NCBI GenBank assembly: GCA_965178125.1
Contig: OZ237763.1
Coordinates: forward strand, 806,001-870,000
Direction: 5' to 3'
DNA: 64,000 bases
Origin: Bilabrum cf. latius
Lineage: Eukaryota
Shown: positions 1,546-60,900 of the stretch, piece by piece
How the letters are laid out: each line of letters begins with the position of its first letter
How positions within the stretch are numbered: the stretch's first letter is position 1
The notes under the pieces: generated by a model
Database searches by the model: none
Told to the model about the DNA's origin: nothing
Seen by the model: the letters and a program-made list of their open reading frames with translations, nothing else
Position numbers and translations under genes: made by a program

Positions 1546-1704
1546 CGGGGCATCCCAGATGCGATGGAGGGCTGCACATGCAGGACCTGCAAGGAGTAGC
1601 TGCACTGATGTTGCGATGACGGGGCATCCCAGATGCGATGGAGGGCTGCACATGCAGGACCTGCGAGGAGTAGCTGCACTGATGTTGCGATGACGGGGCA
1701 TCCC
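1483..1704. repeat. 74-bp tandem repeat x3 spanning the stop codon of the first gene
   Basis: Near-identical units AGATGCGATGGAGGGCTGCAC...GGGGCATCCC start at 1483, 1557 and 1631. Confidence 0.95.
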
Positions 1705-1755
1705 AGCTCCAAGTTTGTCATTCGATGTCGGTTCGATTCATTTCAAGCAAGGGGT

Positions 1756-9328: not shown

Positions 9329-9365
<37 letters not shown>

Positions 9366-10209: not shown

Positions 10210-10385
10210 CCTCACCCAGCTCTCACAGAAATACTAAAGGGAATACCGGGAATTAGACGAAACCACCAGGTAATCAAATAGATCTTCAATCGAAAACCAA
10301 CAGAACGAGGCCACGCAACGCTGCAGATAGGGTAGATTTGCTATTGTTTCAGCTAGCCGTTTGCACACCGGGTTGCACTCGTCAC

Positions 10386-11223: not shown

Positions 11224-11434
11224 CAAACAAGGTCGGCACATCTGGGGCCCACGGCTTAGAAAGTGCAAAAAAGGTACTCCCACCGGGGCTCGATCCCGGG
11301 CTGGATCATTAGGAATGACCAGTGCTTCCACTACACTATAGGAGCTTGTTGTCGGCAGGAGGCGAATTTGACAATACAAATATCTTCCTGTTTTAGGGAT
11401 AGTTTCAAGACCTTTTTTCGAATGACACTTGCCA

Positions 11435-13396: not shown

Positions 13397-13543
13397 CTTG
13401 GTGAGTACGGGTCTGCAGCGCCGCGCGTTGCATTGCCAGCAGGCATGTCGTGGACGTTGGTGCACCCGTTTTCCGGAACGGTCTCCCAGAGGGTTGCATG
13501 GACTATATGAATGTAAAATCCCATAACAGACTGCCTTGTCGTC

Positions 13544-16500: not shown

Positions 16501-17179
16501 TCTCATGGAGACTCGTCAGCAGCACGCCCGCGTCGTGCACAGCCTCTGAGTCCGTCGCGCTCGCTGCCCGCGCCCCGGGCGCCTTGAGTCCCCGGAGGCG
16601 CACGTTGAAGAGCCGCTCGAAGGCCGCCGAGAATATGGCCGTGGCCCCATCCTGCAGGTGGGACACAGTCTCCAGGGGGACGGGCGGGTCGATGCCCACG
16701 GCCCGCACCAGCCGCTGGGCGGTGTCCACCAGGTGCTGCGGCTCGTCAAAGTCTAGAAAGGGGCTGGAGCCCACAGAATCCTCCGCCAGCCCCCGCCCCA
16801 GCTCGGCAGCATCGTCCGCCTCCTCCTCGTCGGCCCGTGCCATCGCCTGCAGCGCATCGTGGGCATCGGGGCCAGAGGCGGGCTTGGAGACGGCTCCTGC
16901 AGCGACACCGCCGCCGCTCACCTCGTGGGACCTGCTTGCACCGAGCGCCCGCAGTTCCTCCCTGGTCCCAGAGCCCGCGGGGCCCGGGCTGCGCACGCCA
17001 CCAGGTGGCACACCCGACTGTGCTGCAGGCAGGCCGAGCTGGGCGCGCATTCCGGCAGCAGGAGGGGCTGTCGCTGCTTGTGATTTGCGCACAGGCGCTG
17101 CGACCCCGTCGCTATCATCTTCCCCATCGGTCCAGCCGGGTGGCAGATCATCCCTACCTCCGAGTCTATTTGTTGCCAT
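13544..17179 (-). CDS. CEP95-like protein (N-terminal CH-like/DUF5745-type domain, low-complexity linker, coiled coil)
   Basis: ORFs 15761-17254, 14954-15751 and 13544-14941 share a frame, joined by TAG at 15761 and 14954. IFSAAFERLFNVRL...AGVLLTSL...SLAGGSVSAIKFMLSLFLEI resembles the CEP95 N-terminal domain. Ends TGA. Confidence 0.55.
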
Positions 17180-17884
17180 AGTGCAGGTGCTGTGCAGCGA
17201 TAAACTGCGCAATGAACAATACGCTGGGAGGCAATTTATTGTAAATAAATCCACATGGATCGCCCCGTGTACAACACAGAGCTGCGAGACAAATACCGCA
17301 GGGCAGCATCAGTTTATGCAACCCGCAGGCGAGTGGCAAGGCAAAACTCGCTTGCTCGAACTCAGTGCGCCCCCTTGCCGCACTACGGGGTCAATATGCG
17401 CAATAATATTAAAGACTTACACTCTGCTCGAGAAGTTGCAGTATACTCGGCAATGCTGGAGGACTCCCTTGGACTTGCCGTTTGGCTCCAGATTTATAAA
17501 GGTAACGTGTTAATTCAACGAATACAATTCTGGTTTTGAGCCAGAACCGCCGCCTCGAAGGCCACGTTGTACCATCTCTTCCGAGCACGTAAGTCGTTTT
17601 GAAGGAGAACCTTTTGACAGCCGACTTTTGTCTTTAATTGTTAACTTATTTCTGTCGTAAAGTATCCGTGTATCGACCATAGGCCGAGACAGGCGGTGTC
17701 TAGTCCTGCTCACTGGGCGATGTGAATTAAAGCTGTGCGAGCTTGCTGTGAATCGAGGCGAAGGGTTTGACATACGTAATCTATACAATTGTGTCTAATG
17801 CATACCCTGTACCGATTGTCGCGGCCCGAATCGTCAATCATATCCCCTTGCACCATAGCTGTATCTTTTCTGATGCCGCAGACC

Positions 17885-18745
17885 ATGGCCGTGCTTTCCA
17901 GGGCGCGATTCATCGCCACTTCCGTCGCTTTTTTCGCCGGTGTAGCGTTACTTGCTAGCCGCACTACGCTCGCACAGGAGGAGGACGGCGAAGACGCCTA
18001 CGACGAGTATAACGAGGAAGAGGATATGGGAGCTGCCGAGCCCGAGGGCTCGCAGTCCCGCTACTCCCAGCAGGCACAGCCCACCGAGGAACAGATGAGG
18101 CAGCAGCAGCAGATGCAGCAGCAGATGATCGCCTACATACGCTCTAAGGCCACTGACGAGTGCAGAGCCGAGCTGGATGCCAGGGTGGAGGCCTCGCAGC
18201 CGGGCGAGGACGGGCAGCCCCCCAAGCCCGAGGACCTCCCGGAGATCAGCGACGATTGCAATGAGAAGTTTACGAAGCTGGCAGAGGAGTTCCGCACCAT
18301 CTTGCAGGCACAGGCCGAGGGCGGGGATCCGTCCGCGGGCGCAGCCGGCGAGGGGGAGGGGCAGGAGGGCCCAGCCAAGGCGGGTGGAGGGTGGGGTGCT
18401 GTCTTGACTGTGGTCGGTCTGGCTGCCGTTCTGATCGTGGGTCCTGCCTTGTACAGCATGGCCCAGTATTCCGCCAAGAAGGCTTGGGAGAAGGCGCACC
18501 CGAACGAGGTGAAGAAGGCCCGGGAGGCCCAGGAGAAGAAGGCAGAGGAGCTCCGCAAGGCCGGCAAGAACGAGGAGGAGGCCTATGAGGAGACTGCAGG
18601 AGGGGAGGGAGGCGACTCGAAGAAGGAAGAGGCCGAAGGGGCGCTGGTGGACGAGGCCGTACGCGCGAGGCGCAAGGCCAAGGCCGCCAAGGCGTCCTCG
18701 GGCAAGTCCTCGGGGCGCAGGAGGGGCAAGGGCGGCCGCGTCTGA
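17885..18745 (+). CDS. Hypothetical type I membrane protein (signal peptide, acidic/Q-rich lumenal part, TM helix, basic tail)
   Basis: MAVLSRARFIATSVAFFAGVALLA signal, WGAVLTVVGLAAVLIVGPALY TM segment, coding-like codon usage; ends TGA. Confidence 0.75.
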   Translation: MAVLSRARFIATSVAFFAGVALLASRTTLAQEEDGEDAYDEYNEEEDMGAAEPEGSQSRYSQQAQPTEEQMRQQQQMQQQMIAYIRSKATDECRAELDARVEASQPGEDGQPPKPEDLPEISDDCNEKFTKLAEEFRTILQAQAEGGDPSAGAAGEGEGQEGPAKAGGGWGAVLTVVGLAAVLIVGPALYSMAQYSAKKAWEKAHPNEVKKAREAQEKKAEELRKAGKNEEEAYEETAGGEGGDSKKEEAEGALVDEAVRARRKAKAAKASSGKSSGRRRGKGGRV

Positions 18746-19050
18746 GCCGGCTGCCTGTCTCGGTCAGTCAGTCACCGGGGCTATGCTTCCGACGCATAGC
18801 GTAACAGGGTGCGTCGAGTCGGCGAGATGTAGTGTGCCTATCAGCCCTCCAAGGGTGGCTGCTGCATTCTAGGTATTGATGGGTGGATTGCTGGAACCGT
18901 TGCACTCTCGCAACGAATGGAAGATACGAACTGCGCGCCATTATTGTATCCGCGCCACGAAACTCAATGATTACTGCATTTACACCAGGTACGGGTCGCC
19001 ATCCAACTAAGCCCATGCTGGTAGTAAGTACCTACTGGGCCAGTAGGCTG

Positions 19051-19822
19051 TCAGCTCTCGCCCTGTGCAGCAGCAGCGCGCGCCTTGGCCTCGGCGGCTT
19101 CCTGCTCGGCCGTCTTAGCCTGCTTCGCAGCGCGTGCAGCTTTGCCGCGAGTCCTAAACTTGCCCTTGACTTGTGCCATTTCTTCCTGCTCCTCTGTTCG
19201 GACGGGCTTGAATCGCTCCAGTGCCCGCCCGTGCTTGGCCACTTCGAGCTCCCGGGCTCTGGCGGTCGACACGAACCTATGGTCGGCAGCAAGGGCCTGA
19301 GAGGAACCACCTTTAGCAGCACTGGCAGACGAGCCAAATGCAGGAGCTGTTGAACTCCCATCCTCCCCGTACTAGGCAGCCAGTGCCTGCTCCTTTGCCA
19401 CAAGTTCAGCAAGCCTGGCCTTCCGTCTGCGATGTTCAAAGCACGGGGAGAATATCGGATCGAATGCCTCGTGCACAAAGAGTTCTACTAGTAACATGAT
19501 AAACTCGTGCATTCATCAGCCGTGACTAACTCTGCCAGCTCCTTCTTTCGCTGTTCAATCTAGCCATCAAGCGTAGGCGCCTGCGAACATTCACAATACG
19601 GGTAAAATGCATCAATGCAGCCTATAAGTGTGACAATGCTGGAGATTCTGCTCCAAGTATCCGGATATTCCTCACTAGTCGGCTGCCCTCATCCGCAAGC
19701 GAGCCCCACTCCTTCGCATATCGCACTTGAGAGTTTACTTCTGACCGGATTCTATCTCTCCATGTTTCAACTAGAGCAAGCTCTGAAAGTTCTTGCTTTC
19801 CTTGCACCCCAGCACCTGCCAT
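19051..19822 (-). CDS. Small 3-exon protein with a motif resembling the C20orf85/CIMIP1 (LLC1) ciliary family
   Basis: Exons 19822-19676, 19580-19531 and 19426-19051; GT-AG introns keep the frame. TWRDRIRSEVNSQVRYAKEWGSL resembles the W-x-R...E...WG-x-L motif. Two TAGs read through; ends TGA. Confidence 0.5.
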
Positions 19823-20050
19823 AGCGGCAAATATGCGACCCGAAGGTCGTCAACGGTACTGTAAGCGTGTGATGATGGCGCTGTCCAGCCGCGAACAGTG
19901 CAGACTGTGCAGTGCATGGTGTACGCACCGTTGCACAGCGAAAAGGCAAATGTGTTAAATCTGTGCTGACGCCAAAATATAAGTAGCTGTGCAGGCATGC
20001 ATGATCGAACCCCCCTGCCACTGCCAATCGCCGAACCCCAACCTGTCCCG

Positions 20051-21322
20051 TCAGGTCGCGCCTCCCGCTGCGGCTCCCTCGTCTGCACCCCCACTGGCGC
20101 TGGACCCACTGGACCTGAGCTCGGCCGAGATCTCGTGCACAGCCTTGACGAAAGCCTGGAACTGCTCGGGCACATGCGTGGGCTGCATGCCCCACCCCAG
20201 GTTGGCGATCATGGGCTTGTCCCCGAACCCCTCTAGCATCTTCCTCACCTCACTACGGATCACAGCCTCGCCCCCGTAGAAGGCCCCCGGGTCCAGGTTC
20301 CCCTGCACCGCCGCCCGCCTGACCCGCCGCGCCCCCTCCGCCGGGTCGATGGTCCAGTCGAGGCTCACCACGTCGAACCGAGCGTCCTCCTCCTCCTCCC
20401 CATCGATCCACTCCAGGGCATAGTGCGCCCCCCTCGCGAAGAGAATCATGGGGGGTCCGCCCTCGGAAGGGGGTGGCACCCTAGCCCGCACCCCCTTCAC
20501 GATCCTCCTCAGGTGAGGCAGCACCGCCTCCTTGAAGAGACCGGGGGGCAGCTCGCCAGCGTTGCTCTCGAAGACTTGCAGGGCAGATGCGCCCGCCAGC
20601 CACTGGCCCACCAGCAGGTCGATGCACGTCTCAGCGATGGCACCCATCATGCGGCGGGCCGCATCGGGATGCCCGTATAGCCAGGTCTTGGCCACCGAGT
20701 GCGACTTGGAGCCGCCCCCTTCCGCCATGTAGGACAGAAGGGTCCACGGGCCACCGCAGAATCCCAGCACCGGGAGCTTGTTCTCTGTGATGCGAATCGT
20801 CTCCTTGATGGCGGCGTACAAAGGGGCAAACGTCTCTGATGCATCGGGCCGCATGCACAGCGGAGGCTCGCGCTTTGCGAGGTCGGCTGGCAGCCCAAGG
20901 GGGATCGGGAACACCGGGCCCTTGCCGGGAACCATCTTGCACTCCATGCCCATGGCCTGGGGCACGATGAGAATATCACTAAATATCACAAGGGCGTCAA
21001 TTGGGGCTCTGCGCATAGGCTGGGCCGTGATCTCTGCCGCGACGGACGGAGTACCGCACATGGCGAAGAAATCGTGCTCCTTGCGCACCTCCCGGAACTC
21101 CGGCAGGTACCGCCCCGCCTGGCGCATGCACCACACGGGACAGACATCAGTTTTCTTTCCGAGAGCGGCGTCCAGCAGACGCGTGTTGCTGGGCTTGTCC
21201 TGCTTCAAGCGAAGCTCGATGAGCTTATCCTCTCCAGCTGGAGGAGCGTACTCAGTACCAAGTTTCGAAGCCACGCTGCCGCCAGGGGCAACTGACTCAT
21301 CGATTGGTTCGCCTGATGCCAT
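20051..21322 (-). CDS. UROD: Uroporphyrinogen III decarboxylase
   Basis: PVWCMRQAGRYLPE, IFSDILIVPQAMG, GFCGGPWTLLSYMAEG, VQGNLDP and IANLGWG motifs; no internal TAG; ends TGA. Confidence 0.97.
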   Translation of the reverse strand: MASGEPIDESVAPGGSVASKLGTEYAPPAGEDKLIELRLKQDKPSNTRLLDAALGKKTDVCPVWCMRQAGRYLPEFREVRKEHDFFAMCGTPSVAAEITAQPMRRAPIDALVIFSDILIVPQAMGMECKMVPGKGPVFPIPLGLPADLAKREPPLCMRPDASETFAPLYAAIKETIRITENKLPVLGFCGGPWTLLSYMAEGGGSKSHSVAKTWLYGHPDAARRMMGAIAETCIDLLVGQWLAGASALQVFESNAGELPPGLFKEAVLPHLRRIVKGVRARVPPPSEGGPPMILFARGAHYALEWIDGEEEEDARFDVVSLDWTIDPAEGARRVRRAAVQGNLDPGAFYGGEAVIRSEVRKMLEGFGDKPMIANLGWGMQPTHVPEQFQAFVKAVHEISAELRSSGSSASGGADEGAAAGGAT

Positions 21323-21487
21323 GCTGTACGTTTTGCACTTGGTGGCGTGGCACAGCAGCGCATGGTTTCTCCAGCGGAGGTCCACTCGTCATCGTGCAAA
21401 GATACCCGGCAGTAGAATCATGCACAGACGTTCCGAGATGTAGCTTTGGCGATGAAAATGCCCGCGAATTGACTTAACCAAACGAAC

Positions 21488-24400
21488 ATGGACGGGGACT
21501 TTGCCGGTAGTGGCCTCCAAGACCGCCACGGATCCCAGTACGCTGGCATGCAACAGCAAGGTGAAGACCAGGCTTGGGAGCGACACTACGACAAAGCATA
21601 GCGTCACTATTATTGGATTAATACTGTGACTGGTGACTCATAGTGGGAAGCTGCTCCGATGGAAGCGATGGTTGTGGTGGATCCACCAGCGAGCGAGGCT
21701 GCCGTGGTTTCACCAGCAGTCTCGTAGGTTGATAGTGGTACCGCCACCGACCATTCACGTCTAGTATAGGAAAGTACTGCAGAGAAGGCGATGGGTATGG
21801 TGGATCCACCAGCAAGCGAGGCTGCTGCGGCTTCATCGGTAGTCTCGTGCGTTGGCACTAGCGGAACGAGCTCATTGCGCTGGCAAGCAGTGTGGTCCAA
21901 GTCGAAGCAAAAAGTGTATTATTTTAATCGCGAGACTTAGAAAACGTCTTGGGAGCCTCCAGATGAACCGTTCGAGCCGCTGCCCGACAATACGGCTGCA
22001 CCTGGAGCCACCAGGTCAGCTGCCCTTCCTGCTGCAGTGGGCACGACTCCCAGCCGAGCGACTGCCACTGCCAGCGGCACCAAGAAGCTATATACTCCTC
22101 CGACAGGACAAGTCGCTGCAGGGGTGCACTCTGGCCCGACCGGAGCGGGGAGCCGCGAAACTCCCGGCCAAGGAGGTGCCGTTGCAGACTCACCTCACGC
22201 TGGATCTGCGGCAGGCACCCGCAGGGGCAGTGGTCCAGCGCCATCGCCGATAGACCCCCACCGCATGGCTGAACAGCTAGCAGACCGACTGCAGCAGCAG
22301 CGGGAGGAGCTGCAGCGTGCCTTCAGCGAGGAGAGGAGGAGAGCGGAGGAGGCAGCCCAGGCTGGGCTGGCCGAAATCAGGGAGGAGCTGGCGGCCGCGA
22401 GACAGGCGGCCGCAGAGGCAGCGGGGCAGGCGGCAGAGGCAGCACAGAGGGAGCGGGCGAGAGCCGACGCGGAGATCGAGCGGGCGGCGAGGGCGGGGGA
22501 GCAGGCGGCTGCGGCCAGGGAGCAGGCGGCTGCAGCGGCGGCTCGGTTGGAGGCGCAGGACTAGGCGCATGAGCGGGTGCAGAGGGAGAGACAGGATGGG
22601 GCTGCCGCGCTGCGTGAGGTGCAGCAGCTGGCTGACTAGAGGTAGACTGCCCTGGAGGGGGCTCGGAGGCACGTGGAGAGGGCAGCGTGGGGGGCATCGG
22701 CCGCGACGGGCGAGCTGAGGGCGGCGGTTCGTGCCGCCCGCAGCGTGCCTGCCGCTGGCAGTGGCACAGGGAGTGGGGAGCAGGACGGCAGGGCCGGTGA
22801 GGAGAAGGCCACTGGGCACGGGGAGGGAGAGGGGAAGCAGGACGAGGGCGTAGACAAAGACAAAGACGAGGCAGGGGGCGGTGAAGGGGCTGGGCTCGCA
22901 TCGGCAGCCCAGCTTCTGGAGCGCCGTGTGGAGTCTCTGGGGAAGCAGGCTGTGGAAGTGCAGGAAGCAGCAGCGGCTGCTGCAGCGAGGGCCCGACATG
23001 CCATTGACGCGGCCCGATAGGCAGAATCCAGTGCAAAGGAGGCCTCGGCCAGACTGGTGCAGGAGGAGGAGGCGAGGGCGGCGGCGGAGGGGCGAGCCGA
23101 GCAGGCAGCCAGGGAGGCACGGGAGGTTCGATAGGCGCTGCAGGCCGCCGAAGAGGCCCACAGAGCTGCTGCAGATAAGTTGAAGGCTAAATCTGAGGCA
23201 GATGCAGCGGCGAAGGTATAGGTAGCGCAAGGCTCCCACGACAGTCGCCCCCTTCCCCCTGGCCCACCCATTGGAAGCGACGAACTTCGCCGCGCGCGGG
23301 AGGAGGGCAGGAGGGAGGGTGCGGCCGAGGTGGAGGCCAGGCTGAGTGCCAGGGTGGAGGAGGCGCGGCGGGAGGCCACGGAGGAGGCGGCATCACTCAA
23401 GGCCTAGACATAGGCCAAGGCCTAGGCATCTGCGGATGCAGCCAGGCAGGGTCTTTAGGAGGAGGTGCGATCGCTGCGGGCCAGGCTGGACGAGGCAGAG
23501 GCAGAGGCCACCAGGGCGCAGGAGACCAGCGAGCGGCAGCAGCGCCGCGCAGAGGCCGCAGAGCAGAGGGCAGACTCGGCGCGGGAGGAGGCCGAGAAGG
23601 CACGAGAGGCTAAGACCAGCGCGTTGCAGGCCGCCGAGGCCGCCTACAGAGCGGAGCTGAAGCGTGCGCTGGATGAGGCCGCGGCTCGATTTCAAGAGCA
23701 GAAGCAGGCGGCAGTGGGCGCAGCAGAAGCCGCGGAGAGGCAGCGACTACAGGCGCGCGTGGCAGAGGTAGAGCAGGCCGCCGCTGCCCGCTGCCAGGCC
23801 GCGGCAGAGGAAGCCGCTGCCGCCGAGCGCAAGAAGGGTGAGGCACAGGCAGCGGCACTGCGCGCCGATGCAGAGAGCGCCCGGCAGCAGGCCCGGCGGG
23901 AGGCTACACTGCGGCGCGCGGCTCACAACAAGGTGCTGGAACTGCAGGGGAACATCCGGGTGTTCGCGCGCATTCGGCCCGTGCTGGAGGTGGATCGAAG
24001 GGCAGGCGAGGCTCAGGCACGAGATGTGACGAGCGTGCAGGACGACGGGAAGGTGGAGCTTCGGTTCAGCAAGCTGGAGGCGCTGGGGGATGGGGGGGCG
24101 GGAGCGGGGCTCGGTGTGTCTTCGGGAGCCGCCAGTGCCAGCGAAGAGAGGCATGCCTTCGCCTTTGACCGCGCCTTCGGAGCTGACAGCAGACAGGAGG
24201 AAGTCTGGGCGGAAGTGGCACCCATGGTGCAGTCGGTGGCGGACGGGTACAACGGCTGTATCTTCGCCTATGGGCAGACGGGCTCCGGGAAGACGCACAC
24301 GATGGAGGGAGATCTCGAGGACCCGGGAGTCAACCGAAGGGCGCTGCAGATGCTCGTGGATGTGGTGGTCAAAGAGGATCTGGGGGAGGTCGAGTAGGTG

Positions 24401-25273
24401 GACAAGGTTGCAGCGGACACCCCGAGGAGCGACAAGAGCGGGGGCAGCGCTGGTGCTTCGACGCCCACTTCTTTGCCCATCGTCAGGCCTCAGCTGCTGC
24501 TGAGCGTGCTGGAGATCCACAATGAGAAGGTGCGAGACCTACTGGCGCCAAGGGGCCGCAAGGGGGCGGATTCGCTGGACTTGCGGGCCTCAAGAGATGG
24601 GGGCGTGAGGGCAGAGGGACTGACTCACGTGCGGGTCAGGAGCCAGAAGGAGGCCCAGGCGCTGCTGCTTCAGGCGGGCAGGCACAGGAGCGTGGGTGGG
24701 CACGACATGAACGCGCACTCGAGCCGGTCCCACCTAGTGGTGACCGCCACGCTGACGGTGCCTCGGCCCGGCGGCAAGGTGACGAGCTCCCGGCTGCACC
24801 TGGTCGACCTCGCGGGGTCGGAGAGGGTGCGCAAGACGGGGGCTGGCGGGGCTCGGCTCAAGGAGGCTCAGCACATCAACAAGAGCCTAAGCGCGCTGGG
24901 GAATGTGGTGGAGGCGCTGGCCTCGAGGCAGAGAGCGGCGGGGAGCGGCGGGTCTGCCTCGGGCGGGGGCGGGCACGTGCCGTTCCGGAACAGCAAGCTG
25001 ACGCACCTTCTGCAAGGGGCCCTCTCGGGGAACAGCAAGGTGCTCATGTTCGTGAACGCGTCGCCCAGCCTGTACAACGCGTCCGAGACGCTCTCGTCCC
25101 TCAAATTCGCGCTGCGGTGCAGGGCAGTCAGGCTTGGGGTGGCCCGGCGAGGTGTGCAGGACAAGTGGCAGGCAGAGGCCGAGATGCTGAGGAGGAGGGT
25201 GCGGGAGCTGGAGAGGCAGCTGGCGGCGGCTGGGGATGGGGCTGGGGCTGGGGCTAGGACGGGCGGGACTTGA
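21488..25273 (+). CDS. Kinesin-14 (C-terminal motor) with two N-terminal WW domains and a long coiled coil, ~1,260 aa
   Basis: Neck HNKVLELQGNIRVFARIRP, P-loop AYGQTGSGKT, NAHSSRSH, LVDLAGSER, HVPFRNSKLT. WW1 is WERHYDKA*RHYYWINTVTGDS*WE and WW2 is WQAVWSKSKQKVYYFNRET*KTSWEPP. One frame with 16 TAGs; ends TGA. Confidence 0.9.
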
Positions 25274-25400
25274 GCAAACAGCAGTGCATGCCCCACTTGA
25301 TACCCTGGATCCAGTGCATGATGATTCAAGCACGATCGGACTGGATACTGTCACATTTTATTACTCGAGATTTAAATCTAGAATCTTGATCCAGCTCAAG

Positions 25401-28400
25401 TCACGACCTCGCCCCTGACGAAGGCGCTTCCCCCCTGCCCCGTCTCTCCTGCTACACCGCGCGCAGGTGCCTGCCCAGCCCCGCCGCAGCATCCACGACC
25501 GGCCCATCCCTGGCCAATGAGCCGCCCATGGACTCGCCGGGCCTGCCCTATGGCGGCGGCCTGCCCTCCTCCCCAAGCACCCTCCGCTGGAGCTCTGCCA
25601 CGAAGAGAGCTCTGTCCTGCGGCTCCACGAAGGGAAGCATGGCCGCAGCAAGGGCGGGGCGGGGGGACAGAGCAGCTGCCGCGGTCTGCCAGAGGGCCTG
25701 CTGGGCTCCGTCCACAGCCTGGGGCCCCGCCCCCTCTGCGATCAACTGGTTCAGCCGGCGGGCAGCTGCTTCGACCCCCCTTGCCTGCGGGCTGGCCTCA
25801 CCAAAGGTCTGGCGTAGAGCACGCCAGAAGGTCACGGCATCCGTTGGAGTCAGCTGGGTCTGCTCGGCCGACTCTTGCTGCAAGCGAGCCATGCGGGCCT
25901 CTGCACGGGTGGGCCTGCGCGGGTGCGGCGGGTGGTGATGATGGTGGTGGCTCTACCCCTTCGCATCTGCCTGCTTGCCCTGCTGCCCCGCCGCCCCGCT
26001 CGCCCTGCCCAGCGGCCCCATCACCGGTGCGGGCTCCTCAGCAGTGGGAGCCAGCGCCAGTGCTTGAGCCACCACGGCTTCTGCTTGCCGGTCCGCTGCT
26101 TTGAGCACCGCAGCGCGATACCTCTCGGGGTCCTCGCCCTCAGGTGGCACGGCAGGGCCCAGTCTATCCCTGCCCCCGCTGCTGCTGGCCTTGCCACTGG
26201 ACGCACCGGCCCCAGTCCTGCCCGAGGCCCCGCTCCGCGCACGGGGATACGTGTGCTGGGCTGAGCCCGCCCCGGATGAGGCTCGAGAGGATGCCTGTTT
26301 CTGCACCGATCCAGCCGACTTGCCCCCTGCCAGCGCCACAGTGAACGGATCTGCAGCGGGTCCCTCGGCCCCCTTCACCGGCCGGCTGAACGCGATCACC
26401 CCCGCATCCGTCTCAGTCACCTTCCTGAGCTCCTCCAGCGCGCCCCACTAGCCCACGATGCCCCGCAGCAGCGCGGCCCTCTCTTGGACCCCTTTGCTGC
26501 CCGTGCTCCTTGCGGCCTTCTCCAGGGTATCCACGGGATCAACCGCCACTCGCACGGCGGGAGGCATGGCCGGGTAGGTCCCTGCCTTGGTGCCCATGGC
26601 CTGCCTGGCCACGCGCCGCCAGAACTCCTGCTCCCGCGCAGAGTTGCGCCCGTCCCCAACCCTTGGAGGCGGTGCTGCCAGCCCGGGCCCGTCGTGCGTC
26701 GCTGCATCCGTTCCATTGGCAGCAGGCAGCCCCGCTGGTATGGGCCAGGGCTCTCCTCCCGCACGAGCAGGCAGCAGCAGCCCAGTGCCACTCCCCGGCG
26801 GGGCACAGCCTTCCTCCACGAAGACCCCAGTGGAGGCCAGCCCGCGCCTGAGCTGCTCCTTGGCCTGCTCTGGAGACAGCCCATTCAGCTCCAGTTCAAG
26901 GTCTTGCTGAGGCTCCTCCTCCTCCTGCTCCTGACCCCCGCTACCCTCGCCCCCTTCCTCCTCCTCCGCATCGGCCACAGGGTCCGCTGCTCCCTCAGGT
27001 GGGGCAGGCACCACGGAGGCCAGCGCTGCCATGAGAGCAGAGGACCCGCGGGACTGACCCTCCTGCCCATCCTCCTCCATGAGCTCCTGACCCGCCCGCA
27101 GCACCTTGCGGCTGCCTGCCTTGCCTCCGCCCCTGCCCCTGCTCCTGCTCTTGCCCCCATCGCGGCCCGCCAAGACGCCCCGCCTTCGAAGCGCCCGACC
27201 GGCCTCCGCGTGAAATCGGAAGGATTCGGAGCCGTTGTGCGCCCCGCCCTGCATCTGTAGCGGGGGCGGGCAGCAGTCGAGGCACGTCCAGAACGGCTGC
27301 ATCCTAGCCAGCTCGAAGCGCACGTAGGACCTGCGAGTGCGGTACGTCTCCACATCCACGCGGAAGCAGCGCCCGCACACAGACCTCCTGCACGCGCTGA
27401 CAGAGCACCAGAGCAGCGCCCCTGTCTCGAACACGTCCAGGCACAGCGAGCACAGCGCCTGTCCCCGGCCCACGAACCAGGCCCCTGGCACCTTGCTGCT
27501 CAGCGACTGCATCGCAACTGCAGCGGCACCCTGCGCGCGAGCGGCGCGGGTGGCGGCACGTGCGCTGCGCCTGCGGCCCGGGCCTACGTGCATCTCCCCC
27601 GCGGCTGCCTCTGCATCCGCCTCGATGCGGGCCGTCTCGGCCTCTGCTCGCGCTCTCGCCGCTAGCTCCGTGGCCTCTCTGGCGGCCTGGTCCACTGGGC
27701 CCAGCCGCTGCTGCCTCCACCTCTTGCGCGCGTAGAAGAGGTGCACCACGTCCGTAGTGGGGCGGCCCAGCAGCGCAGCGACACGGTGAAACTCCTTGCC
27801 GTACTGTGTGACGAGCACTGCGAAGAGGTCGAGCTCGCCTTGCGACCATGGCCTGGGGGCGGGGCCCTCCCCCTCGTCCTCCTAGGGGTCCAGGGGGACA
27901 CCCCCGCGCTCGGGGTGGGGGCGGCGGTCAGCGCCCGGGGACCGCAGGGAGGCGGGCACGGCCGGGTCAGGCAGCCACGTGGCCTGGTACTCCCGCCCCA
28001 CCCTCGTGCGGCGGTACTTGTCCTCGTCCTCGCCAGCCGCTCGCATGCGCAGCTGCTGGGACGTGTCCGCGGCCGAGCCGGCTGGTGCTGCGGCTGGGGC
28101 TGGAGCTGCGGCTGGGGCTGGAGCTGGGGCTGGTGCTGGTGATGGTGCTGGTGCTTGGGTGGTTGCAGCTGTGCCAGGGTCTGCTGCATCCGGTCCGGCC
28201 TGATCGTCGCTAGCCATGGGGGCAGAGGAGGCAGAGGCAGCAGACTCTGCGTGACCTGGCGCGGGGTCGCCCTCTCCGTCCTCCATGGCAGCCTGTGCAG
28301 ATGGCATCTCACCCTCCCCCTCCTTGCCCTCGTTCGCTGGACCATCTGAACCATCCTCCTTGCCCCCGTTCGCTGGACCATCTGAACCATCCTCCTTGCC

Positions 28401-29639
28401 CTCGCCCCCACTATCCTCACCGCTTGAGTCCTCCAGCAAATCCCGGAGCATGGGCTCCACGTGATCCCGGAGCCCAGGCACCCTCAGCAGCCCCTCTGCC
28501 TGACTCGCCCACCCCGTCACGTTGTCAGTGACAGGGGGCAGCGGGACCGCCAGCACGTCCGACTGGCGCCCCGCCACAGCCTGGGTGAGGGCAGCAGCGG
28601 CTCGCAGGTGCGTGTGGTCCGCCGAAGCCATGATGCGGGCTGCGTCCTCCTCGGGGATGGGCCGCACGCTGAGCAGCCTGGGCTCGATGGTCCCAGCGCA
28701 GCCCACCGACGGCAGCTCGGGTAGGCTCGGGGGCACCACCGGGGGCTCGCTCTCATCTGGTGGGGGATCCTCAGAGCGAAATTCTTGCGGGACGTCTTCA
28801 GCTAGCAACGCCTGTAGGGGCACAAGAGCCCGGCGGTGGCGCCGTGGCAGCACCACGGTGCCCTGAGGCCCGGTAAAGAATCCGACAGCGGCAGCGCCAG
28901 CCAAGTGCGGCATCTTGCTTTCGCTGTCATCGCTACCGCTGGCCGTGGCTTTGCTCCCATGTGTGTTGGGTTTGGCTGCAGGCGTGACCACGGCAAGCTT
29001 CACAGGTCCGACAACTGTCGATAGCGGGATGCAATCTCGTTCGTACGACAGAACGACGCTAGTTCGCGCTCGCTGCTTCTTAGCAGATCCATTCTTGCCA
29101 GCTCCTGATTTCTGATCTTTGGCAGGGAGCGCTAGAATTTCTGTCGCCTCGTCGGTTGCTTTACCCTCTAGGTCAACGAGCGTCTGCTCCGCCTCGAGCA
29201 CCGCCCGGACAAAATCTGCTGCCTCCCCGGACACCTTATTTCCCAGCGATGCGGAATACGCGGATGCCGACTCTTGCTGCGATTTTGGCTACAATAGACC
29301 TCCGCGAACAGCTGAATGTGCCTGTACTGCAAGAATCCCGAGCGCTTCCTCAGTAGTAGGAAGCCATCGGACCTTGGCTGCCATGACTTCCCCGCGTTGC
29401 ACAAGGGATTCAATGAGCGCAAATGAGGTCGGTCGTTTGCTTCCTTCGCTTGATTGGGTTCGAACGCTCGCTGCAACGGCTCCATCGGGGCCAGGCACGC
29501 CGCCCTTGCTATCGATCCTGCGGACCTCGATGGCATCCCCGACCGCTATCAACGTAGACCCAGCTTGAGCTGCCCAATACTCGATCTCACTGCGGCGGCC
29601 TCTTGCTAGTCGAACCTCCCCTGCCCATTCAAACGCCAT
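25401..29639 (-). CDS. Chromatin protein with BAH-like, ELM2-like, SANT/Myb and PHD/ADD-like zinc finger regions
   Basis: IAVGDAIEV..FALIESL..AKVRWL (BAH-like), TRVGREYQA (ELM2-like), WSQGELDLFAVLVTQYGKEFHRVA (SANT), CSLC..LLWC..C..VCGRC..WTCLDC. TAGs at 29289, 27882, 26448, 25953, 25548 and 25452; TGA 25401. The start is uncertain because the frame is also open to ATG 29849. Confidence 0.7.
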
Positions 29640-29958
29640 CCTGGTGTCCCACTACTCGCTTTGCACGAGCCCACACCCGCCTGGTGCTAGTGTGTAGTTG
29701 TGCGGCTGACCGATTGAGTCGGGCTCTAGTTGCCTAGCGTTACCTCTGCAAAAGCGCTACAAGTAGTTCAAGCAGCAACGGCTCGACAGACACCCCTGGG
29801 AAACCCCCGTCCCTCCCAAGCTTTCAAGGTGCTGTGCACCTTTCCTCATCCAGTCACCTCGTTCCCTCGGTTGTAACCATTATTCGAAGATGAAGATTAA
29901 TCATGTCCTTCATCACCCCAAAGTGAGCCCCTATCCCAAACGAATCTGGACAGATCTG

Positions 29959-31940: not shown

Positions 31941-34900
31941 TTACGTGCGGGCTCTCTTCTTGGCTCGCCCAGCGGCCTTGGCGCCCTTCTTCGACCTGGA
32001 GGCAGCCCGGGGCCGCTTGCTGCCGGGCTCAGCAGCCTCACCTTCTTCCTCCTCTTCCCCCTCCTCGTCCTGCTCCTCCTCCTCGTCATCCTCCTGATCC
32101 CCAGCCGCCTCAGAGGTGGCCTTGCCCTTCTTCCGTCCTCCACTCTTGCCAGCGGCCGCCTTGCCCTTGCCCTTCGCCTTGCCCTTCTCCTTGTTCTACG
32201 ATCCCTTGGGCCTCCCCTTGCGCTGCTTGGTGGGTTTGTACTCCTCCCCCCGCAACTCGCAGTTCTCCTTCTCTACCAACGCGATCAGCTGGTCACACCT
32301 CCGCCTAAGCTCCTGCGTGGTGCGGCTCTTGATGAACCAGTCGAACCGAAACATGGGCGCCCGGCGCACTTCCTGCTGCATGCGGTCCCACCGACCGTAC
32401 CCGAGGGCGTTCAGCATGCACAGCAAGAAGCGGTCTTCCTCCTCGTTGAAGCCCTTCGTGGGCTTGCCCGAGCCCCCGTATGGCACCTGCAGCTGCAGAA
32501 AGGGGTTCCCGTATCTGTGTACCTTCCAGGCCACCTCCCTCTCCACGTCGTCCCTCCTCTGGATCTTGCCCTCGCCCTTGGCGATCTTCACCTCAAGCTT
32601 CTTCCAGTCCTCCAGCTCCACGCAGCGACCCCCCATAAAGTCTCGCTTGGCCGGATCCCACTCGCCCCAGAACGCCGTGAAGTACCGCGCCACCTCACTG
32701 GGCTCCTTGCCGGTGGCCGTTGAAACCTCGGCGATGATGGCCCGACGCGCCCGCCTCCCGTGCCTCTCGCACGCGGACATGAAGGCACGGAAGTCGCGCC
32801 TGGTCCACGACCTGAAGCCCTCGGCCAGCAGCTTCTCCTTCTCTTCCTCCTCATCCTTCGGCAGCACCAGCTTCTCCAGCGCAGCGCGCAGACGGGCCGC
32901 TCCGACGCCCTTGGCCGCCCTCTCTGCCTTCCTGCCCTCTAAGTCAGCCTCGACCGAGTCGTTGATGTCCTCGTCGATGCGCTGCCGGCCCCTCCTCTTC
33001 TTGAGCAGCTTGGCCTCGAGGGTCTTGAGGTCGGACTCATCGCCCTCGCCCTCGTCCTCATCCTCATCACCGTCTGCGTCACCGTCCTCGTCACCGTCCT
33101 CCTCGTCCTCGTCTTCGTCTGCCGCAGCCTTCATCGGCTCGCTAGCACCGGCACCAGATGCAGCCGGCGCAGGTGCAGCAACACTGCTGCTCGAGGCAGC
33201 CGCGCCTGACGATGCTGCAGAGCTGGCGGTTGCCACATCGCTGTCAGCAGCGGCGCTCGAGGCCGACGCATCTCCCTGGCCCCCAGGCCCCTGCCTCTCC
33301 AGCTCTTCCGGGTCCATGGTCATGACCTCGAGGTCACCGTCTTGCAGCGCAGCGGTGTTTGCCGCCCGACCCATGATTACGATCTGGCCTGAAGAGGGTT
33401 CGATGCCCTGCGCCACCATCTTGGCGCGCACCTCGGCGAGCTTGGCCGCCCTCCGCTCGTTCATCTGGCGGTCCTTGCGCCTTCGAGCCCAACGGCGGTC
33501 CATCTTGTTCTCCTCCTGCTCCACCTCCTTGAGCTCTGCCTTGATCTCGCGGCGGGCCAGCAGCAGGTCGTTCTGCTTCTCCACGATCTCCATGATGCGC
33601 TTCCGGTTGAAGAACTGGAAATCCATCATCTGCGGGGGCTTGTACAGTCGAGGTTTCCCGCGGGGGGCAGTAGGCTTGCCGTCCGCTCCTGCTCCGCTTC
33701 CCCCGTGCATCACGTCAGAGTAGTACTGGTCAATATCGTAGTTGCGCTTCCGCTCGCGCTGGGGCAGGTTGATCAGCATGCCCACGTCCATGCCCGCTGC
33801 GGCCAGCCCGCGCTTGCCTCTGCCCCTGCCCGGCTTTGGCTTCTGGTCCGCAAAGTCCTACCCGCCCCAGATGTAGATGCTCATGTCGCCCTTGCTGTCA
33901 TCCATGGAGTAATTCTGCAGCGTGTGCTGCATGTCCCTCTAGATCTTTGCCTTGTCCTCCGAGGTGCGCTCCTCCCCCTTGCGCAGGATCGCGTCGATGT
34001 CCTCGTCCGTGATGCCGTCAGAGCCACCCGACCGGAAGATCTCGTCCGCGCCGAATCGCACCATGTTGGCCAGCTCCCCGCGGGACAGACCCTTCTCCTT
34101 CTGCGCGAGGCGGCCCTGCTGGATGACCAGTGCGTCCAGGTACAGCTTGCGCTCGGCTCGCTCCACAATCTTCTCCTCCACCGTCTGCTCCGTCACCAGC
34201 CGGAACACCCTCACCACGTTCTTCTGCCCGATTCTGTGCGCCCTGTCCATGGCTTGCAGGTCCATCTGAGGGTTCCAGTCGCTGTCGTAGATGATGACGG
34301 TGTCGGCCGAGGCGAGGTTGATCCCTAGTCCGCCGGCCCTCGTGGACAGCAGGAAGATGAACTTGTCGCTGTCTGGAGCGTTGAACCCCTCAATCATTTT
34401 GTCGCGGTCAAGGCCGTGGGTGTTGCCGTCGATCCGGCAGTAGTTGTAGCCCACGTGCCTGCAGTAGTCCTCGAAAATGTCCAGCATCCTGGTCATCTGC
34501 GAGAAGAGCAGCACCCTGTGCTTGCCAGCCTTGAGCTTGACCAGGAGGCGGTGCAGAAGGTTCATCTTGCCGCTGTTCTCCCACAGGTGGGGGCCTTCCT
34601 CGAAGGGAGGCCCCGGCTCGGCGCCGTCGAAGAGGTACGGGTGGTTGCAGCACTTCCTCAGCTGCATGAGGATGTTGAGCAGCCGCACCTTGTCGGCACC
34701 GCCCACCTGGTTCAGCGAGGCAGCGTCCTTGGACAGCAGCTTGCGGTACCACTCGTTCTGCATCTTGGTGAGGCCCACGAACAGCTTGGTTTCGATCTTG
34801 GGCGGCAGCTCTTTGGCCACGTCCTTCTTGACCCTCCTGAGCATGAAAGGCTTGAGAATCGCGTGCAGCTTGCCCACGGCGTTCTTCTCGACGGCCTGCT

Positions 34901-48709: not shown

Positions 48710-48972
48710 CAGCACAGCTCTTGGCCAGTGCAACAACCAATCAATTCATTACAACATGACGAAACTACTTTGCTGCTTTGCTACGTTCCTGGCGCTGCCT
48801 GCACGAAGTATTGCTTTTTGATGCAAAGCACACTGTACAAATGCTTCATTGCCGTTTGGATGTTCAAGCGCACTTCAGATCTCTCGCACATCCACCGGCG
48901 AGCTTAACCACAATTGCTAAGGAAGGAAGCAATTGATCCTTTTATTTACCATTGCAGTGCCTAGTACGGATC

Positions 48973-51900: not shown

Positions 51901-53133
51901 AAGGAGGCAGTATCAGCCCTTGAGAAGTGCAGGGCCGAGCGGGAGGCTGTTGAGAAGGAGCTGGGTAGCGTCAAATCCGTGGTGGTAGAGGTGGAGAGTG
52001 GCCTGAAGGAGATCCGCCAGGCCCTCAAGGTTGCCGTGCAGAAGTCGGAGCAGTGGACTGCTCTGCTAGAGAGGTCCAGGTCGGAGTACTCGGAGACTGT
52101 GGACACTTTGATGCAGTTCGCCGACGAAGAAGACACCGCGGAAGACGGGTCCGCCGGGCCTACTGTGCCTGCCTCGGGAGCCGGTGCGTCCGAGAGCAAG
52201 GAGATGGAGGACGGGGATGGCGACGGTTCTGCCGCAGGTGCGTCGGTAGGCCCGTCCACTGCCGCATCTGATCGCGCGGCTGTCGATCGAGAGCTGCCGG
52301 CTCTGTCCCAGGACGAGATGGCGCGCATGCGGGAGGAGGGCCGCACGGCGGAGCGGCTTCAGATGGAGGTGACCGCCTTAGAGGAGGAGATGCAGCGCAT
52401 GAAGGATGGCGTGAACATGAAGGCGATCGAGGAATACTACAGCAAGAGGAGGGACTACCTCGCTAAGGTGGCCGAGATGGATGCTGCCTCGGCTGTGGAG
52501 GCCGAGAAGCGGACTGCCTTCGAGGGCCTCCGCAAGGAGAGGCTCGACATGTTCATGGCGGGCTTCGCTACCATCAGCCTCAAACTCAAGGAGATGTACC
52601 GCATGATCACTCTCGGTGGGGATGCAGAGCTGGAGCTCGTGGATTCGCTTGATCCGTTCAACGAAGGCATCGTGTTCAGCGTGCGACCCCCGAAGAAGAG
52701 CTGGAAGCAGATCGCGAATCTGAGCGGAGGCGAGAAGACCCTCTCCTCGTTGGCTCTGATCTTCGCCCTCCACCACTACAAGCCCACCCCCCTCTACGTC
52801 ATGGACGAAATTGACGCTGCGCTGGACTTCCGGAACGTGAGTATCGTTGCCAACTACATCAAGGAGCGCACGTAGGACGCCCAGTTCATCGTGATCAGCC
52901 TGAGAAACAACATGTTCGAGCTGGCTGACCGGCTGGTCGGCATCTACAAGACGTTCGACGTGACGAAGAGCGTGACGATCGCCCCCAAGGAATTCGCAGG
53001 CCCAGCAGGGAAGGCAGTCGACGCTGCTTCGTCAAGCTCGGGTGCGGCAGCGACCGGTGGTCCGGAAAAGGGTCGCGGCGTGGCAGCTGCCGGGTAGGTC
53101 GCGTTGGGCGATCGAACAAATGAGGGAGTGTGA
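48973..53133 (+). CDS. SMC4: Condensin subunit SMC4, ~1,390 aa
   Basis: ENFKSYGG..GPFHKRFSSIVGPNGSGKSNVIDAMLFVFG, NRFLILQGEVEQI, hinge GLHGRLGDLG, LSGGEKTLSSLAL, YVMDEIDAALDFRNVSIVANYIKERT*DAQFIVISLRNNMFELA. TAGs at 51658, 51739, 51778, 52873 and 53095; TGA 53131. Confidence 0.97.
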
Positions 53134-57999: not shown

Positions 58000-60900
58000 A
58001 TGGAGGTTCACATGTCATCTAGAGATTTGTTTCGCGTTGGACCTGTAGGCTACCGGGGTACGCTGCAGGTCCTTCCGAAAGGTAAAAAATCGAAAGTGAG
58101 TTATTTGCCTGCAAATGTATAGTCCTTCAGAGAGCTGTGTTCAACATTTTTGCAGATTCAAATTAAGTCCATATATCTTGCAGCCAAAAGTGGTCATTGG
58201 TGATGATTCAGGGTCAGTTCATTGCATAGAAGTCGACAAAGGAGTTGCAAAAGTGAGCGAGAGCAGAACCATTCGCACTGAACCACGCTTTTAGTAAGTA
58301 TTTCGTTGCGGTGGTTGACTTACCATTTTACGGCATGTTTTGTCCTCTCGTTCACAGAGAGCCTTCAAGACTGATGCAAGCTCAAAGCCGGTCTCCTCGG
58401 TGACACTCGGTGGGGCCCCGACAAAGAAAGACAGAGTCTTCTACTCCACCTCTCAAACCATCACTGGGGTATCGAAGAAAGGAAAAGAGTTTTTCCGTTT
58501 CGATACGACACTCTCGGAGACAATAACTTCATCGTTCTCTGAAGAGACGAGGCTGTGGCTAGCGGCATCCACGGACTACGGTCTGTTCGACAACGGAACA
58601 GAAATGGAGTCTTACGCCGCACCAGATGCTATCCAAGACCTTGCAGTCGCAAATGTGACAAGAGACACGGAACCTGACGCAGTCCTTGCTTGCAAAGACG
58701 GGGCCGTAAGAGTGATCGCGGCGGGGTCGTCCGTCCTCGAGTACCGCCAGGGCAGCGGAACCGTGAGCGCGGGCTCCTCGGCAGCTGGTGCCGCAGCAGC
58801 CGCGGCATCTATCGGTGGTGGCGGCAGTGCAAGCGCTGCTGCTGCTGGGGCTCGGTCGGCCGGCGGTGTATCGGGCGCCCGAAGCGTTCACTACTACCAC
58901 CCTACTCTGCTGCGCGGAGAGTCTGCCTCGCTGCCCGCCTCTTCCGCTGCAGCCAAGGAGATGGCCAGCTCTTTGCCTGCCGGAAGCACCATCCCTGCCC
59001 CTCGAGCCGGACGCGGTCACCTGCCTCCGCCCCTGAGTCCGAGTCGCGCGAGGCATTTCCTGGTGGGCTCCGGGGCGGGGAGCGTGGCTCTGCTGCTTGC
59101 AGCCAGCGATGCAGTGCAGCCGCGGTGGACGCTGATGCCTTCTCGCGGGAGGGCGGGAGGTGGCACCGTGAACGCGATCACCTCGCTGGATGTGACTGGG
59201 GACGGCAGTCTGGACGTGGTGGTGGGCAGGGACGACGGGAGCGTGGATGTGCTGGGCGCGGAGGCAGGCCCACACGACCCCGCGGTGGTGTTCTCGCACC
59301 AGGTCGGGGACGCAGTGCAGAGCCTGCAAGCAGCTGCGGTACCCTCACCCGGTGACGGCGAGGTGCTGGCCGTGTCATTCTCGGGCAAGCTGGTGTCGCT
59401 GACCACTGAGTCGCTGTCAGCTGCGGCGGAGGGGGACAGCTACGGGCGCAGCAAGGAGGTGGTGGAGCGGGAGGCCAGAGTAGTGGCGCTCCGGTCCGAG
59501 ATGAGTGCCTTGGAGAAGCAGGTGGAGAAGCAGCGATAGAGCATGTTGGATGCTTGGAAGAGCAGCGGGTTCTCCACGCCGGCCCTGGAGGCCATCGAGC
59601 AGGCGGCGGGGGCGGCGGGGGGTACGGGTGCGGGTGCGGGTGGGGGTGTCGCGAATGCAGGTGTGGTGGGCCAGGCCGCGGGACTAATGGCGCTTGCAGA
59701 GCCAGTCACTGCCGAGTGCCGATTGGAGGTGGATGAGGCAACTGCCAGCTACAGGATCGCGGTTGAATCTGCCTCGCTGGTAGAGAGCGTATCGTTGCTC
59801 AGCCCGGTGCCTCTGGAGATTCTCAAGACGGATCACAGCGCCAATGCCATCGTGTCCAAGACACAGCAGGAGGCGGCAAGGGGGGCCCAGGCAGCCCCGG
59901 CTAGCGGTCCGGAGGAGGCCAAGCCGGACCCACATGAGGATGCGTACGGCCCGGCGGGTTGCGACAAGTGGTCCTCTGTTCACACATTCCGATGCCAGGA
60001 ACTCTCGCACAGGCTAGAACTGAGGGCGAGGGCCAGGGAGGGTCAGACAGGCGACGTTGAGGTGGTGGTCATCGCAGAACCTGGGGCGGCCGGGCGGCAG
60101 GCAGCTGCGGTCGAGACTGTCCGCATCCGTCCGCTGTCACTCCACTGCAGGTGCAGCGACAGCGCATTCGATGACGCAGTGCAAGCAGGCGCGAGCGCAC
60201 CTGCAGGAGACGACCCCTCGCAGTCATGGCTCGCGGAAGCGGGGGCCAAGGCGCAAGCAGCCGCTGCCTCGCATGACTCGCAGGGGGCTCTGGTCGTTCG
60301 CGGGGAGTTCTCGCTTGGAAGGGCTCACGACTGGATCGAGCAGCTGCTTCCAGGTGTGCCCACACGCGCCGATACTGAGTCCGCCGCAGCTCGCTACGCG
60401 GAGCACGCGGCCACAGAGCGAGGCGTGCATGCCGGAGCCTCTGCGTCGGAAGTTGGTAAGCTGATGCCGCTGTCCGCGACGACTGGTGGCGCCGCAGATT
60501 CAGATGGAGCCTCAAGCGTTGAGGCTTCTGCAGCAAGTGGCCGGGGAGGAGGGCCGTCCTCTCGAGCAGTTCTCGTGTTCAGGAACTCGTTGGTGGGAAC
60601 GCTGCTGCGCGCTGACTACTGCCGCGGTGAGATGGTGCTGCGGTCGTGCAACGCATCGTCCTTGGCGATCGCGAGGGATTGGCTGCTCCAGCGCGCAGCA
60701 GCAGACAAGCTGAGCCTACAGGTGGACTGGCACATGCCTACTGCGTCTCTCAGGGCGGCTTGGGGCATGCTACACCCTCGGCTTCGATACGCCGCGTCGC
60801 TTTCAAAGCGAGCTGACCTGGCTGATGCTGTCAAGGAAGTAGCATTGTAGGAGGACGGCGACAGACCATGGTTGTCGCAGGAGCTTAAAGACGTACTGCA

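Follow-up and report, generated by a model that had tools for sequence, protein, structure and literature searches.

In-frame UAG codons, probably read as glutamine, conceal two WW domains of a kinesin gene in a GC-rich flagellate

According to passages of PMC11687900, UAG alone is read as Gln in the nuclear codes of Iotanema spirale (see also PMC5304391), Protocruzia tuzeti and two phyllopharyngean ciliate lineages. It is read as Leu in phyllopharyngean ciliates as well as in an uncultured rhizarian, and as Ser in Scotinosphaera. UAA and UAG are captured together by Gln (UAR, NCBI table 6) in many ciliates, Hexamita, Streblomastix, ulvophyte algae and Amoeboaphelidium (PMC11687900). No stramenopile stands among the UAG-only nuclear changes listed in those passages. 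Here we describe a 64,000-nt stretch of DNA from Bilabrum cf. latius (contig OZ237763.1, positions 806,001 to 870,000), referred to as the window, and in it a kinesin gene at 21488-25273 whose two N-terminal WW domains are crossed by in-frame TAG codons. All positions given are those of the window.

Once TAG was read through, ATG 21488 opened one open reading frame (ORF) of 1261 codons which ended with TGA at 25273. Translation from this ATG reads WERHYDKA-TAG-RHYYWINTVTGDS-TAG-WE, with TAGs at 21599 and 21641, and further on in the same frame WQAVWSKSKQKVYYFNRET-TAG-KTSWEPP, with the TAG at 21938. These strings and TAGs were found in the kinesin frame exactly as a preliminary description of this DNA had given them. 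The linker between the two WW domains (WW1 and WW2) contains two more TAGs, 21725 and 21767. The full-length ORF matched the Pfam families Kinesin (E 2.1e-91), Microtub_bd (E 9.7e-32) and WW (E 3.9e-10). The preliminary description had also stated that the ORF track misses this region, and with NCBI table 11 no ORF of at least 200 amino acids (aa) covering 21488-22276 was obtained. The standard code splits the gene into 17 fragments and both WW modules are lost; an ordinary gene finder misses the two domains because TAG would mean Gln here.

TAG is a translated sense codon throughout the window. Reading through TAG yielded 17 long ORFs on both strands, separated by short spacers. Their 18,325 codons contained 97 in-frame TAGs and neither TAA nor TGA in frame; 14 of the 17 ORFs contained TAGs, and the stops were TGA in 15 and TAA in two. 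A composition control was made with 16 ORFs. In frame, TAG occurred 95 times, TAA and TGA not at all, while the two other frames together contained 199 TAG, 82 TAA and 575 TGA. The in-frame TAG count is about the same as the off-frame count per frame and those of TAA and TGA are zero, therefore TAG is not avoided in frame and the other two stops are fully avoided. GC content was about 52-75% per 2-kb block (about 63% for the organism). Most of the ORFs had a clear Pfam identity, namely a CFAP65-like protein, URO-D, the WW-kinesin, ISWI, calpain, an ABC_ATPase/MRB1590-type protein, an SMC4-like protein, a protein with two PH domains (PH-PH protein) and BBS7. The Pfam matches span TAGs in ISWI, SMC4, BBS7, CFAP65, calpain, the ABC_ATPase protein, the PH-PH protein and the kinesin.

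A relative was used to determine which residue TAG encodes. A search for short PH-PH protein fragments returned three pieces, of which one was 97% identical; the others, from metagenome contigs, were 64% and 59% identical. A related-locus search with the window PH-PH protein returned 501 pattern matches with no relative among them. The metagenome contig behind the 59% piece, L001, is 16.4 kb long with a GC content of 54%. Its positions 1-16439 correspond to window 49015-61017, with the order and orientation of BBS7, PH-PH and SMC4 conserved and aa identities of 72%, 48% and 77%, respectively. The three L001 genes are open only when TAG is read through. Their 3954 codons include 39 in-frame TAGs, no TAA and no TGA, and all three stops are TGA.

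The three orthologue pairs were aligned. Three TAGs faced a gap and four faced TAG, leaving 53 TAG-versus-residue pairs (20 window TAGs, 33 L001 TAGs). Gln faced TAG in 18 of the 53 pairs. The fraction was 17/33 where identity over the 12 flanking residues was at least 0.5, and 14/20 where it was at least 0.67. Of the 12 SMC4 TAGs of L001 that lie opposite a window residue, 10 faced Gln, encoded by CAG or CAA. Five window TAGs were opposite CAA: 60848 in BBS7, 52873 in SMC4 and three in the PH-PH gene. The Gln assigned to BBS7 TAG 60848 in the preliminary description is thereby borne out in the orthologue. The position of TAG 52873 is Arg or Lys in solved SMC4 chains. In the same alignments, Gln faced Gln at 42%, and Glu, Lys, Ala, Leu, Ser, Arg and Tyr faced Gln at 0-4.5%. 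Log-likelihoods relative to Gln over the 53 pairs were -59.9 bits for Lys, -77.1 for Ser, -81.0 for Glu, -95.4 for Ala and -153.1 for Leu. With the 20 window TAGs alone they were -15.8 for Lys, -22.6 for Glu and -23.6 for Ala; with the 33 L001 TAGs alone, Lys came next to Gln at -44.2 bits. From these comparisons, the residue inserted at TAG is predicted to be Gln. TAG makes up a larger share of the Gln codons in the three L001 genes (39/168) than in the window (97/847). Four TAG positions were common to the two sequences, against an estimated two or so if codons had been chosen independently wherever Gln is conserved, and on their own they are no evidence of inheritance.

No in-frame TAA was found in the window ORFs (18,325 codons). 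Gln codons in L001 comprised 58 CAA and 71 CAG; were TAA also Gln, with a TAA:TAG ratio like that of CAA:CAG, some 32 in-frame TAAs should occur, and none was seen. In two window ORFs the homology runs out at a terminal TAA, and TGA follows 6 and 10 codons later, so TAA read-through is possible there. The counts indicate that TAA is not reassigned, UAA and UGA both presumably being kept as stops. With TAG as Gln and TAA and TGA unread, the code would therefore match NCBI table 15 (UAG = Gln, UAA and UGA stops). A tRNA-Gln with anticodon CUA and an eRF1 no longer recognising UAG would carry the change, as in other UAG-to-Gln lineages.

TAG might have a dual role, being Gln inside genes and a stop near some 3′ ends by context-dependent termination. 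Five of 12 TAG-bearing genes have a TAG in the last 30 codons, and the SMC4 gene has one 11 codons before TGA at the same place in the window and L001. However, an estimated 2.7 or so such tail TAGs are expected by chance, and five is no clear excess. Similarity also persists past late TAGs (LHAEVAG versus LHIEVAG in PH-PH, ML in BBS7), and each ORF ends at TGA or TAA near the end of homology. We consider such a dual role unlikely.

The Pfam WW profile (PF00397, gathering score 26.9 bits) was used to examine the two N-terminal segments. WW domains have two Trp residues about 20-23 residues apart, a central aromatic pair and an Asn, and fold into an antiparallel sheet, three-stranded and about 35 residues long. 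The Trp pairs were W30/W53 with YYWIN in WW1 and W132/W155 with YYFN in WW2. With its TAG left as X, WW2 alone scored 39.5 bits (E 5.7e-10), above the gathering score; WW1 reached 29.7 bits, also above it, with either Gln or Ser at its TAGs. The two WW domains hidden by TAGs that the preliminary description had proposed were thus recovered, and for WW2 the match was significant even with TAG left as X. In an exhaustive HMMER search, aa 1-360 matched 126 proteins at E ≤ 1e-3, 12 of them at E ≤ 1e-10, and many of the 126 align from about residue 25 to 165, covering both segments. The signature columns of WW1 are conserved in these homologues (W30 is W in 154/160, N45 is N in 151/163, T48 is T in 145/163 and W53 is W in 162/165), as are those of WW2 (W 359/370, Y 337/382, W 378/382, P 371/382). 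WW1 has its Pro one residue late after the second Trp, with A56 and then P57 after W53 where the normal position is three after; the column of A56 is P in 81 and A in 9 of 113 homologues, and that of P158 in WW2 is P in 371 of 382.

An AlphaFold2 model was made of aa 20-170 with TAG as Gln and an alignment of 44 homologues. It contained two three-stranded sheets with block values of the predicted local distance difference test (pLDDT) of 86-92, joined by a disordered linker (overall mean pLDDT 66.6, predicted template modelling score 0.31). The strands were model residues 11-16 and 21-26 (block pLDDT 88-89) and 31-32 in WW1, and 113-118, 123-128 and 133-135 in WW2 (block pLDDT 86-92). All listed Foldseek matches were WW domains or WW-containing proteins by title, the top ones being the tandem WW domains of FBP21, PRPF40A and Prp40 (E 0.027-0.041). 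The WW domains of Pin1 and Ess1 superposed at a root-mean-square deviation of 0.6-0.7 over 28 columns. A PDB sequence search with WW1 gave weak matches alone (E 0.015 to 1). By profile and model, both segments are predicted to be WW domains, WW2 a secure one and WW1 a somewhat divergent copy.

TAG might also be a sense codon for a residue other than Gln, such as Lys, Glu, Ser or Leu, for which there are precedents for UAG or UAA elsewhere, or Ala. WW domains aligned from the HMMER matches gave the column counts. That of TAG 21641, before the second Trp of WW1, held 164 domains from 77 homologous proteins, with S 61, T 42 and Q 30. The column of TAG 21599 in the WW1 loop had S 71, H 26, T 25, G 13 and Q 2 of 163, and that of TAG 21938 in the WW2 turn had G 183, K 47, N 45, E 29, R 23 and Q 21 of 382. 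Summed over WW1 and WW2, the PF00397 scores among eight residues tried were 72.3 bits for Gln, 69.2 for Ser, 68.5 for Lys, 61.7 for Leu, 61.3 for Glu, 58.2 for Tyr and 43.9 for Trp. WW2 alone scored slightly higher with Lys (43.5) than with Gln (42.6), and in WW1 Ser equalled Gln. When all 20 residues were placed at the TAGs, the Pfam scores of SNF2 and of ABC_ATPase spread over 1-3 bits. Those of PH spread over about 6 bits and were highest with Glu (79.8 against 78.7 for Gln). The ISWI columns are compatible with Gln yet favour Ala, Lys or Glu, and are not decisive. Opposite the window TAGs of the PH-PH gene, L001 has E, E, K, A, L, S and other residues. By themselves, the homologue columns and Pfam scores bear weakly on the choice and do not single out Gln.

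The preliminary description had argued from three such columns. It placed the ISWI TAG (IWGG-TAG-DF, minus strand) and the BBS7 TAG (KEVAL-TAG-ED) at the right positions. Its view that TAG 21641 lies at a Q position holds in that Q occurs there, but S and T are commoner; the ISWI column, described as commonly Q or E, is mostly E and has K more often than Q. Its statement that Gln is the only residue fitting the WW, ISWI and BBS7 columns was not supported by these data, with S and T leading in WW, Glu in ISWI and His in bovine BBS7. Translation of the TAGs as Gln is supported by the L001 comparison and not by the three-column argument. In that comparison Lys, the nearest rival, lies 59.9 bits below Gln over the 53 pairs and 15.8 bits below with the window TAGs alone, and Gln stands at 14 of the 20 well-flanked TAGs when rival residues face Gln at just 1.4-4.5%. 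A residue other than Gln is thus very improbable.

Under the standard code, genomic TAG might be edited U to C in the mRNA to give CAG and a normal Gln. The same pattern of TAG versus CAA or CAG between relatives would result, and no run is recorded as RNA among those that contain window DNA. Of these further runs, X1-X4 contain all sampled words and X5-X7 84-92%. Gene-sized contigs match the window over 21434-22815 (X5) and 21464-22692 (X7) with 0 differences, and their TAGs are unchanged, which argues against editing, though weakly as the RNA status of the two runs is guessed. No listed contig joint takes out a TAG over window 11041-31040. Contigs of both runs break off at 21337 and do not enter the 96-bp spacer that separates the divergently oriented URO-D and kinesin genes. 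A contig of X8 (a run guessed to be DNA that contains a relative about 91% identical) runs across the spacer; the pattern is a weak hint of RNA origin. No precedent is known to us for nuclear messages in which about 5 codons per 1000 are all edited U to C, which counts against it further. Editing is given very little chance here, and a genomic UAG translated as Gln is preferred.

X8 and X10, from other studies, contain the relative, which is about 91% identical in DNA over window 11041-31040. One of its contigs spans 19982-22635 with 228 differences and 33 gaps. Among the differences listed, it has three extra letters at TAG 11588 that give CAT CAG, an anecdote with an ambiguous alignment.

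That the genes are dead and their TAGs mere nonsense mutations or errors of assembly has a negligible probability: nothing more than the breaks of the standard translation at TAGs speaks for it, and against it stand 97 TAGs without any TAA or TGA, BBS7, PH-PH and SMC4 genes intact and conserved in L001, four further runs containing the same DNA, and X5 and X7 without differences.

Several points weigh against UAG as Gln and against the pair of WW domains. No tRNA-Gln(CUA) was seen, the tRNA scan giving one tRNA-Arg(CCT) in the window and none in L001, and the window does not include eRF1. In 15 of the 20 window pairs the residue opposite TAG is not Gln (A 4, E 3, K 3, and F, G, M, L and S one each), which is expected because Gln is conserved at only 42%. 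The substitution model of the likelihood was built from the same three alignments, and both organisms were assumed to share the meaning of TAG. Ala is commonest in three of the four alignable ISWI TAG columns (120 homologues), and TAG-bearing columns are variable, so that broad profiles barely separate residues. X5, rated 'probably DNA', and X7 have a guessed RNA status. With X at its TAGs, WW1 alone scored 22.9 bits, below the gathering score, and Foldseek of the WW model against PDB gave no match at E ≤ 0.001, the best being 0.027. With these points considered, it is highly probable that the source of the window, a flagellate with a GC-rich genome, few introns and an ISWI that falls among those of stramenopiles, reads UAG as Gln, uses UGA as its main stop and keeps UAA as a stop, and that 21488-25273 is one gene.

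The motor domain of this gene contains a single TAG, codon 970, within a loop insertion, and Microtub_bd was matched at aa 803-963. The stretch aa 270-800 is rich in Ala, Glu and Arg and, from its composition, is a putative coiled coil. WW1 and WW2 lie about 100 residues apart at the N-terminus, with three of the 16 TAG codons within them. A homologue search by shorter lengths with kinesin aa 1-800 gave no match at E ≤ 1e-5, low-complexity words having probably filled the 8000 candidates. The C-terminal motor after a coiled coil is a layout which we take to be that of kinesin-14, the class being assigned from layout and features known to us. Dimerisation would be through the coiled coil. At the N-terminus, a flexible tail would present the two WW domains to a cargo or regulator with proline-rich or phospho-Ser/Thr-Pro motifs, to which they would bind, and the pair may thereby recruit a proline-rich partner to a minus-end-directed motor.

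To place the organism, ISWI was used. Its best matches were 55-64% identical, and the named ones were mostly stramenopiles (oomycetes, labyrinthulomycetes, ochrophytes and Incisomonas). A FastTree tree was built from the query and 36 of 120 matches, namely those with usable source names, most of the highest-identity sequences and three metazoan outgroup sequences, the other 84 being omitted. The query fell within a group of 30 stramenopile sequences with local support of 99, in a clade of 10 where unnamed environmental sequences are joined by a single EukProt transcriptome entry. From this one gene and a quick method, the organism is provisionally placed among stramenopiles.

Other features of the window are listed with the main ones in Table 1. 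Telomere-type repeats, not at the sequence end, occupy 61552-64000 and could be subtelomeric or, alternatively, an interstitial telomeric array. A 'GXGXGX' ORF with 45 TAGs was rejected as read-through of the TTAGGG array and not a gene. The minus-strand ORF 46028-48736, with no Pfam match, contains a 51-bp tandem repeat in six copies at 47565-47872. The unit (…PPSRPGDGA-TAG-VQAAADA…) includes an in-frame TAG, and 6 of the 14 TAGs of this ORF are copies of one. ORF 29890-31884 contains a perfect (GGTGCT)x32.7 array at 31051-31246 that encodes about 65 Gly-Ala pairs, and has no Pfam match and no TAG. The PH-PH protein (53231-57835, minus strand), in which Pfam names two PH domains only, has a Cys-rich stretch, …CASCGVGITTG…CYCWYTELLLCPPCF…, and its C-terminal region is conserved in three fragments, P0123-P0125. 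The CFAP65-like protein (1756-10368, minus strand) has Gly/Lys/Asp-rich inserts (GKGKDKGKGK…), which are CCCTTG-type tandem repeats in the DNA and occur also elsewhere in the window.

Table 1. Positions of the kinesin gene, its domains and TAG codons, and further features of the window.
Feature	Position	Strand	Details
WW-WW-coiled-coil-kinesin gene	21488..25273	+	1261 codons, 16 in-frame TAGs, stop TGA; Pfam Kinesin, Microtub_bd, WW
WW domain 1 (predicted)	21572..21649	+	aa 29-54; TAG codons 38 and 52
TAG codon 38	21599..21601	+	loop 1 of WW1
TAG codon 52	21641..21643	+	directly precedes second Trp of WW1
WW domain 2 (predicted)	21881..21961	+	aa 132-158; TAG codon 151; canonical W132, YY, N147, T150, W155, P158
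TAG codon 151	21938..21940	+	turn joining strands 2 and 3 of WW2
C-terminal kinesin motor	23969..25126	+	aa 828-1213 of 1261; Pfam PF00225 positions 1-326 of 327, E 2.1e-91
ISWI TAG, codon 783	33858..33860	-	IWGG-X-DF column E 69, K 26, A 7, Q 5 of 120 homologues
SMC4 TAG, codon 1308	52873..52875	+	conserved C-terminal head; Gln (CAA) in L001, 12/12 flanking residues identical
BBS7 TAG, codon 837	60848..60850	+	Gln (CAA) in L001, flank identity 0.83; His in bovine BBS7
tRNA-Arg (anticodon CCT)	11273-11345	-	sole RNA gene found in the window, ARAGORN and Rfam
Repeat order	61552-64000		(TAGGGT)x6 61552-61587; 339-bp unit x4 61724-63081; (TTAGGG)x47 63083-63364; 155-bp unit x3.7 to window end

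The kind of code is known and its occurrence in this lineage appears new. A full-text literature search, mostly without subscription journals, gave no report of nuclear UAG reassignment in stramenopiles, and a description may exist, the runs of the organism itself being as recent as 2025. It is possible, though we put it forward tentatively and with somewhat less than even confidence, that this is the first nuclear stop-codon reassignment in stramenopiles, with UAG to Gln and UAA kept as stop, and that it is old and shared by at least two well-separated lineages in a GC-rich genome setting. The change would be old and not a one-species oddity because both the window organism (about 63% GC) and the source of L001 (54% GC, 77% SMC4 identity) have it. 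If true, the setting is GC-rich with UGA as a near-universal stop, unlike the AT-rich genomes of most stop-to-Gln codes. Cases in which UAG and UAA differ in meaning are few, and are informative on the co-evolution of release-factor recognition and suppressor tRNAs. A further, independent case would be a useful system, the flagellate being GC-rich, compact and apparently cultivable, and a second lineage being there for comparison. Standard-code annotation of this genome or its relatives would cut most long genes into pieces. Contigs of the clade such as L001 are mistranslated in public protein collections, the three PH-PH fragments being pieces of one gene.

Iotanema spirale, Protocruzia tuzeti and the phyllopharyngean lineages likewise read UAG as Gln and keep UAA as a stop, according to the passages of PMC11687900. 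The differences from these cases are the grouping of ISWI with stramenopiles here and not with fornicates or ciliates, the GC-rich genome, and UGA as the main stop (15/17). In the table 6 lineages a stop codon has likewise been captured by Gln, according to the same text (PMC11687900). These take UAA and UAG together; here TAA occurs 0 times in frame in 18,325 and 3954 codons, and ends 2 of the 17 ORFs.

At the protein level, the kinesin-14 motors Ncd, Kar3 and KIFC1 likewise have a C-terminal motor behind a coiled coil, and both Pfam Kinesin and Microtub_bd match here. Unlike them, the present protein, assigned to this class by layout and not by phylogeny, has an N-terminal WW pair. No such pair is known to us in described kinesin-14s. 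The tandem WW proteins FBP21, PRPF40A/Prp40, KIBRA, SAV1 and the Nedd4 family likewise have two WW modules on a flexible linker, and proteins of this kind made up the top Foldseek matches and the weak PDB sequence matches. In contrast to these, the predicted pair here is part of a fusion with a putative coiled coil and, at the C-terminus, a kinesin motor, its linker of about 78 residues is predicted to be disordered, and WW1 is without a Pro at +3 from its second Trp.

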